From positions 569,159 to 633,158 of the forward strand of contig OY969622.1 in NCBI GenBank assembly GCA_963701665.1: a DNA stretch of 64,000 bases, given 5' to 3'. The notes beneath the pieces were generated by a model, which saw only the letters and a list, made by a program, of their open reading frames with translations, was not told where the DNA came from and did no database searches. Source of the DNA: Candidatus Babeliales bacterium. Its GTDB lineage: Bacteria; Babelota; Babeliae; Babelales; JANWKD01. The stretch's first letter is position 1, and every line of letters starts with the position of its first letter. This document shows, one piece after another, positions 6,355 through 14,070 of the stretch. Made by a program: the position numbers and the translations under genes.

Positions 6355-7971
6355 ATGCGATACAGATCTCTTTTTTTTATAACAATACTATCACATTTAT
6401 TGACTTTATCTTTTGAAACGCTCGCTATGAATCCTGAGGGAGAGCAATTTCCCGTGGGATCATTTAGAAAAGCAGCCCAAGATCAAGATAGCTTTCCAAG
6501 AGAACAAAATAATTTTGATGATGAGGAAAAACTGACACGTTTTGCGCAAGCAATTGTTCGCGCTACATTAGATGGCATATTTAATCCGTCGCAACAAGAG
6601 AGTGGTAGAAAAGAGGATGACAGAAAATCCGAAGGTGATTTTAAAGAGGTTTTTGATGATGAAGGATCTGAATATGAAGAATTGGATCCTTATTTGATGC
6701 ATTCATTAATTGAGAATGCACCTGAAAAATTGAAGTTTATGATAAAACTTTATGCTAATCGCAGGTCGTTTGCCTTATTATCAAAAAATAGTTGCTTTAA
6801 AAATAAATTTTTGCTCTACGGCCCTCCAGGAGCAGGTAAAGGTTCCCTGGCAAAAGCATTTGCGGATTATTGTGGATTGCCACGGCAATTTATCGTCGGT
6901 GCTTCATTGTTAAATCAATACCAACATTCAGGACAGCAGAATTTGCGCCTTCTTTTTGGACGATTGTTGCGGAAAAAGAATAAAAATCCACACGTTGTTA
7001 TTTTTGATGAATTTTCAGCAATAGCTAGCCAGGATGATAAAAAAGAAAAAAATAATGAAGAACAAATGCTTTCCGTTTTATTAAATATTATTGACCAATT
7101 TGAAGAACATAAAAATATACTTTTTATTGCAACAACAAACAACATCAAAGATATGCCTGCTCCAATAAAAGATCGCTTTTCAGGATCGGTTTTCAAAATT
7201 TCATTTCCGACTCTTGAGCAAAATTTGGATTACATCGAAAATGATTTGGATGATAAAAAATATGATGATGATTATGACAGTGAACATCCATCAGATGAAT
7301 CTATACAAGAATTTGATGGAAAATTAGAATTTAAAGCTAACCTAGACAAAAATACCAAAAAAACTTTAGCAAAAAAGATGTCTAATTTTAGCTGCAGAGA
7401 TCGTAATGAAATGCGAGATAACTCAAGATTATTAGCATTGAGAAAATTTGTTGATGAAAATTTTGACATAACTCAACTAGCTATTCCAGTAACTAAGGAA
7501 AATTTATTTGACGCAATAAAGGAAATTGAACTACATAAAAAAGAATTTGCGCCTAGTACTTGGAAATACTATAAAGAGATTTTCAAAGATTATTACCCAT
7601 TGGTTTCAACAACTGTTCAGGTTGCTGCTAGCATTGGCTTGCAATGGTACAGTATAAGGCAACAGGCTGCTTTTACAAGATCATCCCATGAAAGTCAACT
7701 CTCATTGATGGAAGCTTTCCAAAACAGTCAAATGGCGTTCAGTGAAAGAGTTCATCAAAATCAGATGGATTTTCAAACTAGAGTTCATGCAGAACAAATG
7801 GTATTTCAGAAAGAGGCAGCTCGAGACCAATTAGGTCAAAATGTAAAGGCGGCTGATGATCAATTAGCTGCTCAAAAAAGTGCTGCAGGGTGGCAATTGG
7901 GTACGCAATGGTTTTTTGGCCTTGCTAGCTGGGTAGGGCCGATCATCCTAAAAGGTACGGCTGGACAATAA
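6355..7971 (+). CDS. Classic-clade AAA ATPase with a signal/anchor-like N-terminus and a hydrophobic C-terminal segment
   Basis: Walker A is LLYGPPGAGKGSLAKAF, Walker B is VVIFDEFS, and the sensor/SRH-like region is FIATTNNIKDMPAPIKDRF. The N-terminus is MRYRSLFFITILSHLLTLSFETLA and the C-terminus is WFFGLASWVGPIIL. A three-fold ~11-aa Q-rich repeat is present (QMAFSERVH / QMDFQTRVH / QMVFQKE). Confidence 0.8.
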   Translation: MRYRSLFFITILSHLLTLSFETLAMNPEGEQFPVGSFRKAAQDQDSFPREQNNFDDEEKLTRFAQAIVRATLDGIFNPSQQESGRKEDDRKSEGDFKEVFDDEGSEYEELDPYLMHSLIENAPEKLKFMIKLYANRRSFALLSKNSCFKNKFLLYGPPGAGKGSLAKAFADYCGLPRQFIVGASLLNQYQHSGQQNLRLLFGRLLRKKNKNPHVVIFDEFSAIASQDDKKEKNNEEQMLSVLLNIIDQFEEHKNILFIATTNNIKDMPAPIKDRFSGSVFKISFPTLEQNLDYIENDLDDKKYDDDYDSEHPSDESIQEFDGKLEFKANLDKNTKKTLAKKMSNFSCRDRNEMRDNSRLLALRKFVDENFDITQLAIPVTKENLFDAIKEIELHKKEFAPSTWKYYKEIFKDYYPLVSTTVQVAASIGLQWYSIRQQAAFTRSSHESQLSLMEAFQNSQMAFSERVHQNQMDFQTRVHAEQMVFQKEAARDQLGQNVKAADDQLAAQKSAAGWQLGTQWFFGLASWVGPIILKGTAGQ

Positions 7972-7999
7972 TCTAAATAACCGCAAAGTACTATATACT

Positions 8000-12366: not shown

Positions 12367-12396
12367 TAATTTTTCAATCATAAAAAGGATTTTCTT

Positions 12397-14070
12397 ATGC
12401 AAAAGAGAATGCCATTGAGCTTTTTCATAATTATTATGATTAGTTTTAAGCTCTGTGCCTGGGCAAAAGATAATGGTAAAAAAGATGCAGATTTTATAAA
12501 GAGGTTTGGAGAAGAATATTTTAAGGTACCTGTTGAGAAGGATGATAATAACGATCTATATATTAATGCATGTGAATTAATAAATCTTTTCCAAACAATT
12601 GTCTTTGAAACAATGAATGATATATTTGCTGAAATAACAGATGAAAGGCTTGAAGGATTTCAGATTGAGCAATCCCCTACTAAGCAACCTGAAAAGGTGA
12701 CTCTATATACAAGTGTAGCAGAGCAAAATAATAAAACGGGGCATGAAAAAATTGTACAATTAATTTCTACTATTTTAATGCAAAAAAGTTTAAAGGAAAC
12801 AGTCAATTTTGTTAAACAAATATCGCCAGAAACAAAAAAGGTCATTAAAGAAATAATTAATACTCCTGATAAACATTGGAGTAATACATTTTTACACAAA
12901 GCTTCAACCGCTTTGGAAGTAGAGCAACTTTTGTTACTTGGAGCAGATCCTGAAATAAAAAATGAGTTAGGGCGAACACCATTAATGGCGTTACTTTTTG
13001 ATGGTAAATGTGAAGCAGCCAAGATGCTTATTTCGAAATTACCTTCATTTGATTTTTCTATGGTAGATAATGAAGGTGCAAATTTAACACTATGTGCTGT
13101 TCGCAGTGGTGATACTAAAATTGTAGATTTATTCTTGAAAAAAGGTGGGAGTTTAAATAGCGAAGTAGGCGGAGTAACACCTTTACTGATAGCCGTAGGT
13201 GCAAGAAATATACCAATGGTTAGGTATTTATTAAAGTTAGGAGTTGATGTTAATCAGGCGATTACCGCTACAGATTTTTCGGATTCTAATCGGGAAAATC
13301 TGCCTGATACCTCTGATATTATAGGGGTAACGCCGCTTATGATGGCAGCCTCAAATGACGATGGTGAGATGGTAAGATTATTATTAAAAGCAGGAGCGAA
13401 TGTTAATGCAATGTGCCTAGATGGTTCAACAGCATTGATAAAATCTTTGGCAGGATCAAATGTGTTTAAGATCCTAATTGATGCTGGTGCAAATGTTAAT
13501 GTAACAACACATAATGGGTTTACGGCTTTATTAGCTGCAACAATAATACAGCCAAATGCTATTATGCCATTATTGAAAGCTGGGGCGTTGGCTAATAGTG
13601 AAATTTCTAAGGACTATTTTATTCCCGATATGCCTTCTGTTAATTTGCAAGGGTTAACGCCATTATTAATGGCGATAAAAAATGCACCAGATACTGTACT
13701 GTTTCTTATTGATGCTGGTGCAAATATCAACCACAGAACAGATGAAGGACTTACACCTCTCATGATGGCGGTCATTTCAAACAACATTGATTTAATTTCT
13801 CAGTTACTTGAAAAAGGAGCGCAAGTAAATTGTGCAATGATATGTGACAGTCCGTATCTAAAAGTGCTGTTGCAAGATTGTTTATCATCAAAATTTGATG
13901 CAGACACAACAGGATTAACGCCACTTATGATAGCAACAATTTTAGATGAAGCGCCTACCGTTACTATTTTGCTAAAGCATGGTGCTGATAGAAATGTAAA
14001 AAATGCAAAGGGACTTACTGCTTTGAATATGGCAATCATGAAAAATATTGCAGAGATATTATCAGTTTAA
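12397..14070 (+). CDS. Secreted ankyrin-repeat protein
   Basis: The N-terminus is signal-like (MPLSFFIIIMISFKLCAWA). At least 8 ANK units are present, for example GVTPLMMAASNDDGEMVRLLLKAGANVN and GLTPLMIATILDEAPTVTILLKHGADRN. Confidence 0.85.
   Translation: MQKRMPLSFFIIIMISFKLCAWAKDNGKKDADFIKRFGEEYFKVPVEKDDNNDLYINACELINLFQTIVFETMNDIFAEITDERLEGFQIEQSPTKQPEKVTLYTSVAEQNNKTGHEKIVQLISTILMQKSLKETVNFVKQISPETKKVIKEIINTPDKHWSNTFLHKASTALEVEQLLLLGADPEIKNELGRTPLMALLFDGKCEAAKMLISKLPSFDFSMVDNEGANLTLCAVRSGDTKIVDLFLKKGGSLNSEVGGVTPLLIAVGARNIPMVRYLLKLGVDVNQAITATDFSDSNRENLPDTSDIIGVTPLMMAASNDDGEMVRLLLKAGANVNAMCLDGSTALIKSLAGSNVFKILIDAGANVNVTTHNGFTALLAATIIQPNAIMPLLKAGALANSEISKDYFIPDMPSVNLQGLTPLLMAIKNAPDTVLFLIDAGANINHRTDEGLTPLMMAVISNNIDLISQLLEKGAQVNCAMICDSPYLKVLLQDCLSSKFDADTTGLTPLMIATILDEAPTVTILLKHGADRNVKNAKGLTALNMAIMKNIAEILSV

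Follow-up and report, generated by a model that had tools for sequence, protein, structure and literature searches.

We analyzed a 64,000-nucleotide (nt) stretch of the genome of a Candidatus Babeliales bacterium (GenBank assembly GCA_963701665.1, contig OY969622.1, positions 569,159 to 633,158 of the forward strand), referred to here as the window; coordinates given without a locus name are those of the window. Six open reading frames (ORFs) follow one another on its plus strand and encode two AAA ATPases (AAA1 and AAA2) that flank a 793-amino-acid (aa) protein, a 174-aa protein, and a 62-aa ORF, with an ankyrin-repeat protein at the 3' end (Table 1). The genes for the 793-aa and 174-aa proteins appear to encode a polymorphic toxin and its immunity protein, and genes related to the two ATPases recur beside toxins of the same family. 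The ORFs are separated by 28, 5, 6 (9 if counted from the ATG at 10921), 9, and 30 nt. A previous reading made from the letters of the window alone (the sequence-only reading) had reported six co-directional ORFs with short gaps and a hairpin on each flank, all of which we confirmed.

Upstream, the module is bounded by an intrinsic terminator (free energy of folding [dG], -27.4 kcal/mol; z, -7.6 versus shuffled sequences) that belongs to the preceding MIP/aquaporin gene and lies just 3' of that gene. The hairpin at the other boundary has a dG of -15.4 on the plus strand and -17.5 on the minus strand (z, -4.4 and -5.4, respectively). Because its U-run is found on the minus strand only, this hairpin fits the convergent flavodoxin-like gene (14116-14784) at least equally well. 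Inside the module, a consensus scan detected no site resembling a terminator, and no notable repeats were found. Given the short gaps and the lack of an internal terminator-like site, cotranscription of the six ORFs is plausible.

Table 1. Features of the module. Positions are those of the window; a slash marks the end of a leader.
Feature	Position	Strand	Length or residues	Basis or remark
Intrinsic terminator, 5' module boundary	6198-6236	+		17-bp stem, then T-run
AAA1 gene	6355-7971	+	538 aa	ORF list
Toxin gene	8000-10381	+	793 aa	ORF list
Toxin signal peptide	8000-8056	+	residues 1-19	MLFLILICVYFNLPFTSNG/MEEG; hydrophobic leader conserved in family
Toxin body	8057-10045	+	residues 20-682	predicted all-alpha; Babeliales-specific; without Pfam match
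C-terminal toxin domain (tip), Ntox19-type	10046-10381	+	residues 683-793	predicted metal-independent RNase
Imm38/DUF2247 gene	10387-10911	+	174 aa	ORF list
62-aa ORF	10918-11106	+	62 aa	TTG start; next ATG at 10921
AAA2 gene	11116-12366	+	416 aa	ORF list
Ankyrin-repeat gene	12397-14070	+	557 aa	ORF list
Hairpin between convergent genes, 3' module boundary	14082-14106			folding energy versus shuffles

An exhaustive phmmer search with the 793-aa protein against 1.84 billion representative sequences returned 850 matches at an E value of ≤1e-3, and these fell into two classes, relatives of the body and relatives of the C-terminal domain (the tip). The tip relatives are hundreds of proteins, from 65 to 3337 aa long, that match residues ~690 to 790 only, at 50 to 68% identity. 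The domain ends no more than 10 residues from the C terminus in 121 of the 122 full matches (median, 2 residues). Among the 63 longer carriers that were scanned with Pfam, RHS repeats (7 proteins), PT-TG (6), and LXG (3) were detected upstream of the tip, along with a TPS/Fil-haemagglutinin/DUF637/PT-VENN set (in a CdiA), DUF4280, WXG100, and PT-HINT. Two RHS proteins, P0034 and P0078, end in the same tip (P numbers denote proteins and L numbers denote loci of the comparison). These architectures are the range given for the toxin domain family Ntox19 by Zhang et al. in 2012 (PMC3482391). The conserved residues of Ntox19 are D, H, DxxxR, E, and HxxF (Table 2 of PMC3482391), and the tip in the window reads KLDAHHAF ... 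DGISR ... FEW ... HRLF. In an alignment of 63 tip proteins, the D, H, E, W, and H-R positions are invariant and the F is nearly so; the Arg of DxxxR is visible in the consensus (GDGxxR) of both tip alignments.

The type example of Ntox19 is a Neisseria MafB-class toxin, NMW_1482, and the immunity partner of the family is Imm38 or Imm40 (PMC3482391). The tip is 47% identical (E value, 4e-14) to the C terminus of a MafB from N. gonorrhoeae, which is not the N. meningitidis protein NMW_1482. On the strength of its motifs, its partner gene, and its fusion partners, we assign the tip to the Ntox19 type with high confidence. Ntox19 was proposed to be a metal-independent, two-histidine RNase with a barnase-EndoU-colicin E5/D-RelE (BECR) fold (PMC3482391), and by analogy the tip is predicted to be a metal-independent RNase. 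An AlphaFold2 (AF2) model of the tip, built with 37 sequences (predicted local distance difference test [pLDDT] score, 87), consists of short helices followed by a four-stranded antiparallel sheet.

The adjacent 174-aa product matches DUF2247 (PF10004) with an E value of 2e-27 and 96.2 bits (cut-off, 25), over profile positions 3 to 157 of 158, and it has no signal peptide. DUF2247 is Imm38, a family of polymorphic-toxin immunity proteins that is paired with Ntox19 and with NGO1392-like HNH domains (PMC3482391). A DUF2247 gene lies directly downstream of the tip in the window, in the Babeliales locus L013, in Duffyella, and in Neisseria. The Duffyella protein is CdiA-like and ends in the same tip, with a "DUF2247 family protein" encoded 2 nt downstream; in the Neisseria MafA-MafB locus, the MafB that ends in the tip is followed immediately by a DUF2247 homologue. 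The 793-aa and 174-aa proteins are, judging from these matches, very probably a toxin/immunity pair. The sequence-only reading had paired the large protein with the small one closely linked to it and had listed a toxin module among its options, and both ideas held up. Its statement that it could match the gene content to no described system did not, since the pairing of Ntox19 with DUF2247/Imm38 had already been described by Zhang et al. in 2012 (PMC3482391).

Unlike the tip, the body of the toxin is confined to one lineage. Approximately 15 body relatives cover residues ~258 to 680, and all of those with a traced source are on Babeliales-like contigs. A family profile built from a seven-sequence alignment found three Babeliales loci in a genome scan, and a metagenome scan found one. 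All related loci with a named source come from Candidatus Babeliales metagenome-assembled genomes (MAGs), which belong to the phylum Dependentiae, the lineage that had been guessed from the sequence alone. The body has no match in Pfam. Its AF2 model is all-helical, with a pLDDT score of 52.6, and has no meaningful fold match; the model is poor, and the Foldseek matches that it did produce, to designed helical repeats, are meaningless. We conclude from the distribution of its sequence relatives that the body is apparently a new, Babeliales-only family. The body ends in an Ala/Gly/Val-rich hydrophobic stretch (residues ~600 to 660), and a Gly/Asn-rich junction (SEAMQGGGNN) follows. At the other end, a hydrophobic leader and then ME[ED] are kept in all family members examined. 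The NCBI/ENA model of the toxin (P0001) begins at an internal Met, after the leader. Taken together, leader, body, and tip identify the 793-aa protein, with high confidence for a prediction from sequence, as a polymorphic toxin with a Sec signal.

Aligned members of the family are collinear up to the SEAMQGGGNN junction and divergent beyond it, and at least five tip types occur on this one body family. The Ntox19 tip of the window is shared with only one other family member, P0014 (L013), which also has DUF2247 downstream. An Ntox35 tip (27.8 bits, above the cut-off) is found in P0015 (L021), followed by a gene for a 223-aa protein, and Ntox35-like tips that score below the cut-off are found in L001, L002, L003, L010, and L011, each followed by a gene for a TPR-like protein of 236 to 241 aa. 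P0076 (L014) has an Ntox21 tip with three CdiI_N genes downstream. At least three further tip types, in P0012, P0017, and P0058/P0010, are unassigned. Wherever one of the assigned tips occurs, the downstream gene that goes with it is present too.

The tips and their immunity genes are much better conserved than the bodies that carry them. Between the window and P0014/L013, identity is 32% in the body, 67% in the tip, and 62% in the immunity protein; between L001/L002 and L003, the corresponding values are 36%, 58%, and 60%. Conversely, the body of P0010 is 77% identical to that of the window toxin and carries a tip of a different type, that of P0058. In L002 an orphan Imm38 gene is retained behind a replacement immunity gene, in L011 the Imm38 gene is broken by a frameshift (2258-2772), and L010 has duplicated or partial immunity genes. 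Base composition follows the same boundaries: the toxin body has a GC content of 37.0%, the tip 29.5%, the Imm38 gene 25.7%, and the spacer that contains the 62-aa ORF 25.0%. Positions 10046 to 11115 have the lowest GC content in the window (25 to 30%, versus 36.8% overall), and the limits of this interval match the tip, Imm38 gene, and spacer exactly, as expected of an imported cassette. Sequence comparison and composition thus identify the tip and immunity gene as an AT-rich cassette that is apparently exchanged by recombination. The locus displays the defining traits of polymorphic toxins, namely, a C-terminal tip, tips that vary among relatives, a downstream gene that covaries with the tip, and a tip held in common with other delivery systems.

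Several related loci have features of their own. Three tandem CdiI_N genes follow the Ntox21-tipped family member in L014 (14800-16175), and another three form an orphan immunity array in L003/L004 (20030-21546), standing alone ~4.5 kb away from the toxin genes. In L013 (6002-12245), P0014 and its DUF2247 gene lie between a ParA-like gene and a phage-type integrase gene on a 17-kb contig, with no AAA gene, which suggests that the toxin family also moves on a mobile element. A gene for an ~313-aa WD40 beta-propeller protein follows the candidate immunity gene(s) in L012 (13182-14129) and L017 (13531-14472); its product may be a further recurrent accessory or immunity protein.

The two ATPases of the module both match PF00004 above the cut-off (E values, 2.6e-25 for AAA1 and 1.5e-22 for AAA2). 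The sequence-only reading had called them paralogues with export or anchor signals. They are 27% identical over ~370 aa (E value, 1e-28), which makes them distant paralogues, and the leaders are conserved on the AAA proteins of related loci as they are on the toxins. AAA1 comprises a signal-peptide-like leader (residues 1 to 24, ...ETLA/MNPEGEQ), an AAA domain (~150 to 320), a Gln-rich C-terminal region, and a hydrophobic tail. AAA2, which probably starts at Met12, has a signal-peptide-like leader as well (MYRKSLIYKTIVILLIMNHLSLIG/N); its C-terminal hydrophobic segment lies at ~352 to 370. The best matches in the PDB are the D1 domain of p97/VCP for AAA1 (~1e-23) and a VCP-like ATPase and Cdc48 for AAA2 (~1e-25), and both are, by sequence, single-domain AAA ATPases of the classic clade, p97/Cdc48-like. 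The Walker B motif, sensor 1, one Arg finger, and the pore-loop aromatic residue are kept across 10 members of the AAA family. Every member with a readable 5' end has a Sec-type leader, in which a positively charged n-region precedes a hydrophobic core and positions -3 and -1 hold small residues, and most have a hydrophobic C-terminal tail.

Many of the AAA leaders run into a Met-Glu/Asn-acidic sequence, as the leaders of the toxins do. The pattern (a leader ending in A or G and then ME[ED], or a leader and then Met-Asn, as in MNPEGEQ) is present in all family toxins, in most linked AAA proteins, and in some unrelated ORFs. Its sites in the window are 8000-8065, 6355-6440, 15456-15842 (minus strand), and 25859-26407 (minus strand); among relatives, it occurs in L002, L012, L013, L014, L015, L017, and L021. 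Gene callers sometimes begin these proteins at the Met after the leader (P0001 and the AAA1 of L002). The pattern could be a lineage-specific sorting motif that follows signal-peptide cleavage.

The best PADLOC/NCBIfam matches of both ATPases are to IetA/IteA models (E values, 3e-18 and 4e-15), which raised the possibility of an IetAS-type antiphage defense system, a pairing of an AAA ATPase with an effector. The scores, at 55.8 and 42.1 bits, are far below the cut-off of 510, and the matches span the generic AAA domain only. There is no gene for an IetS serine protease in the module, the partner genes of these ATPases encode a secreted polymorphic toxin and the cognate immunity protein, and the ATPases themselves bear export signals. 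We rejected this interpretation, whose probability we regard as negligible.

Linkage between AAA genes and toxins could be assessed at nine toxin loci with a visible upstream side, a sample that was mostly found via the toxin or AAA1 and is hence not unbiased. In seven of the nine (the window, L002, L003/L004, L012, L015, L017/L018, and L021), an AAA gene lies directly upstream of the toxin in the same direction, with gaps of -8 to 99 nt. The toxin bodies of these linked loci are only 27 to 36% identical, and the genes farther upstream vary (MIP, glycosyl hydrolase, ankyrin, and rotamase). Across the window and all fetched loci, the AAA family profile matches toxin-adjacent genes only. The suggestion, made from the window alone, that the AAA genes belong with the pair agrees with this recurrence. 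AAA1 orthologues are found upstream of the toxin in L002 and L003. A second, downstream AAA gene is present in the window, L001, L002, L011, and L012; the AAA2 orthologues in L002 and L011 are 64 to 65% identical to that of the window, and the one in L012 is more distant. From this pattern, the AAA ATPase is probably a frequent, dedicated, but dispensable accessory of the toxin family, and a functional partnership with the toxin is an interpretation toward which we lean slightly.

It is also conceivable that the AAA genes are unrelated neighbors, independent lineage-specific secreted effectors that play no part in toxin function. Two toxin loci lack an AAA gene, the second AAA gene is found in some loci only, different toxins are preceded by AAA genes that are not all orthologues of one another, and the Walker A motif of AAA1 in the window is atypical. 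Set against these points, the position directly upstream is kept in most loci despite the divergence of the bodies and of the genes farther upstream, the gaps are small, and every family member in the window and fetched loci is toxin adjacent. We consider it quite unlikely that the AAA genes are mere neighbors.

For the locus as a whole, we propose with moderate confidence that it encodes a Babeliales polymorphic toxin and its Imm38 protein, with a swappable tip and immunity cassette, and that the AAA ATPases are accessories exported to unfold or thread the toxin. The toxin would be exported by Sec, its lineage-specific, all-alpha body presumably serving delivery, and the Ala/Gly-rich hydrophobic stretch before the tip might aid membrane crossing. 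The tip would act as a two-histidine RNase. Imm38 would stay in the cytoplasm and bind and block the tip in the producer and its kin. The AAA proteins would leave by the same route as the toxin and anchor in a membrane. ATP available beyond the cytoplasm of the bacterium, within the host cell, would then let them unfold the toxin or pass it through a membrane as it travels to its target. This extracytoplasmic unfoldase scheme is tentative, and as a separate part of the proposal we find it somewhat unlikely. A particular version of it, in which a membrane-anchored AAA unfoldase, located either in a host membrane or in the bacterium itself (periplasm or outer envelope), runs on host ATP and drives the Sec-exported toxin across a further membrane, is very doubtful. 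Were such an ATP-driven translocation device to exist, the leader/Met-Glu-acidic N termini of the toxins and ATPases might be its sorting signal.

Several observations weigh against this proposal or parts of it. No Pfam Ntox19 model matched the tip, and a Foldseek comparison of the tip model with the PDB gave no match, so that a BECR RNase fold is compatible with the model but not demonstrated. Among the AAA proteins, AAA1 of the window has a Gly in its Walker A motif (GPPGAGKGS, residues ~158 to 166) where all nine relatives have Ser (GKS), the motif being intact in AAA2 as well, and with this substitution AAA1 may be weak in ATP binding or hydrolysis. The toxin loci without an AAA gene are L013, the integrase/ParA element, and L014, which means that the ATPase is not obligatory. 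In L012 and L015, the AAA gene that precedes the toxin groups more closely with AAA2 than with the AAA1 of the window; the linkage is therefore to the AAA family and not to one orthologue. Some of the related genes are split by frameshifts, namely, the toxin gene of L002 (11615-14064) and the AAA genes of L015 (3-1405) and L021 (530-2266), which could reflect decay of the system or indel errors in assembly. Finally, an AAA ATPase exported by Sec would meet no ATP in an ordinary periplasm, and the proposed site of action of the AAA proteins is accordingly speculative. An intracellular energy parasite would, we infer, have ATP outside its own cytoplasm. C. destructans, a Dependentiae isolate, has been described as highly host dependent (PMC6561590).

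Some of the same evidence could be accommodated by a host-directed effector operon, in which the RNase toxin attacks host RNA after being secreted into the protist along with the AAA and ankyrin proteins, there is no conflict between bacteria, and Imm38 shields only the producer before export, as barstar does with barnase. All four large products of the module bear Sec-type leaders and the immunity protein has none, and the host cytosol would supply an exported AAA ATPase with ATP. A very large fraction of the Dependentiae proteome is exported, nucleases and ankyrin proteins included; in C. destructans, 44% of coding sequences and 78% of ankyrin proteins have signal peptides (PMC6561590). Ntox19 has been reported in giant viruses of amoebae, where it is fused to ankyrin repeats in mimiviruses, and in effectors of amoeba symbionts (PMC3482391). 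In agreement with that remark on mimiviruses, when the tip model was compared with models of viral proteins (BFVD), the best matches were ankyrin proteins of Megavirus, Bodo saltans virus, and Edafosvirus (probability, 0.99; E value, ~0.06). Counter to this explanation, the exchange of tips along with matching immunity genes is typical of conflict among related bacteria, and the orphan Imm38 gene (L002), the duplicated or partial immunity genes (L010), and the triple CdiI_N genes (L003 and L014) point the same way. Moreover, toxins whose main targets are eukaryotic hosts usually have no immunity gene next to them (PMC3482391). We judge a purely host-directed operon to be unlikely. For the polymorphic-toxin interpretation that we favor, tip swapping and the orphan and tandem immunity genes argue for rival bacteria within the same host as the target; the lifestyle of the lineage and the occurrence of Ntox19 in viruses and symbionts of amoebae make the host a possible one.

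The closest relatives of the toxin-immunity core are the Sec-dependent MafB-type toxins that carry Ntox19 and Imm38. Like the toxin in the window, MafB of the MafB/MafI systems of Neisseria (class "T2SS (MafBN)" in PMC3482391) has a signal peptide, an N-terminal body, and a variable C-terminal toxin domain; the tips are homologous, a DUF2247/Imm38 gene follows immediately downstream, and alternative tips and orphan immunity genes are found among relatives. The two systems differ in that the body of the window toxin is unrelated to MafB_N or any Pfam family, that the window has no gene for a MafA-like lipoprotein and instead has a signal-bearing AAA gene upstream of the toxin, and that the bacterium parasitizes protists and is obligately intracellular. 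CdiA/CdiI and Rhs systems share with the module the tip, the immunity family, and the logic of exchanging tip and immunity gene as a cassette. In contrast to those systems, the toxin in the window has no TPS domain, haemagglutinin or RHS repeats, or PAAR/VgrG partner, and no CdiB/Omp85-type gene is adjacent to it.

AAA-family ATPases are also genetically linked to secreted toxins in the cases of Pvc15/Afp15, the loader of contractile injection systems, and EccA of type VII secretion. Pvc15, like the AAA proteins of the window, belongs to the classic, Cdc48-like AAA branch. Pvc15/Afp15 and EccA are cytoplasmic and are encoded in large apparatus loci; Pvc15 has two AAA domains, and its gene lies among those for the sheath, tube, and baseplate. 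The ATPases in the window differ from these proteins: each has only one AAA domain and combines it with a Sec-type leader and a hydrophobic tail. No injection-system domains were detected in the 10 large ORFs of the window that were scanned, which are housekeeping genes, ankyrin genes, or without Pfam matches, or among the listed genes of related loci. Given the single-AAA ATPases and the lack of sheath, tube, and baseplate genes in those 10 ORFs, we rejected a contractile injection system or type VI secretion system as the context. The membrane-anchored eukaryotic AAA extractases Msp1/ATAD1 resemble the ATPases in that they have one classic-clade AAA domain plus a hydrophobic anchor, and AAA2 matches Msp1/ATAD1 chains at ~1e-15. 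The D1 domain of p97/Cdc48 is matched more strongly, and the anchors in the window are arranged differently, as an N-terminal leader and a C-terminal tail; there is no evidence that the likeness extends to a shared function.

Not all six ORFs appear to belong to the module in the same sense. The sequence-only reading had counted two small ORFs in a six-gene module. One of the two, the 174-aa ORF, is the Imm38 gene, but the 62-aa ORF found no support as a gene. Nor is the module a fixed unit among relatives, where the presence of the ankyrin gene varies and only some loci have the second AAA gene. The 62-aa ORF has no match in Pfam, NCBIfam, or PADLOC and no counterpart in the related loci compared, and for these reasons we treat it as spacer; it is probably an AT-rich spacer at the 3' end of the cassette and not a gene. 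Its position in relatives is taken by a different gene, encoding a 192-aa membrane protein (L002 and L011), or by nothing. That the 62-aa ORF is a remnant of this membrane-protein gene was rejected, since the two show no similarity. The ankyrin protein (Ank_2; E value, 3e-62) has a signal peptide (...LCAWA/KD). An orthologue (53% identity) follows AAA2 in L011, and none is found in the otherwise syntenic L002. The ankyrin gene is thus probably a variable neighbor that encodes a separate secreted effector. Genes for ankyrin proteins abound in these genomes, and in the window three tandem ankyrin-repeat genes at 36837-40671 (444, 435, and 390 aa) encode proteins distantly similar to the ankyrin protein of the module. 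Elsewhere, a 903-aa protein from an NCBI record (P0008) fuses ankyrin repeats to an AAA domain distantly similar to AAA1, a possible hint that AAA and ankyrin modules cooperate in some organisms.

The window as a whole is chromosomal and includes gidB, aquaporin, uvrA, ftsK, mutS, Mur ligase, and amidase (GatA-like) genes. Four large ORFs in it, at 38-3256 (1072 aa), 27579-29198 (minus strand, 539 aa), 47065-48882 (605 aa), and 50175-53108 (977 aa), have no Pfam match at an E value of ≤1e-5 and are lineage-specific proteins.

Full-text searches of a library of papers turned up no work in which polymorphic toxins or immunity proteins are linked to Dependentiae or Babeliales. The toxin-immunity core of the locus is known; what differs from known systems is the body family, the lineage, and the recurrent partnership with AAA ATPases that bear export signals. 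The locus defines a new family of toxin bodies and a recurrent genetic link between that family and such ATPases. It also shows that a diversifying arsenal of toxins and immunity proteins is maintained by obligate intracellular parasites whose genomes measure ~1.3 Mb, which implies competition between coinfecting strains or an arsenal turned against the host. The genome paper on C. destructans describes export through Sec only (PMC6561590). If the ATPases act outside the cytoplasm, they could indicate a new delivery route in the phylum, and how an energy parasite powers protein machines there would become a question in its own right. An extracytoplasmic, ATP-driven device for toxin translocation, if it is real, would be of a kind not yet described.

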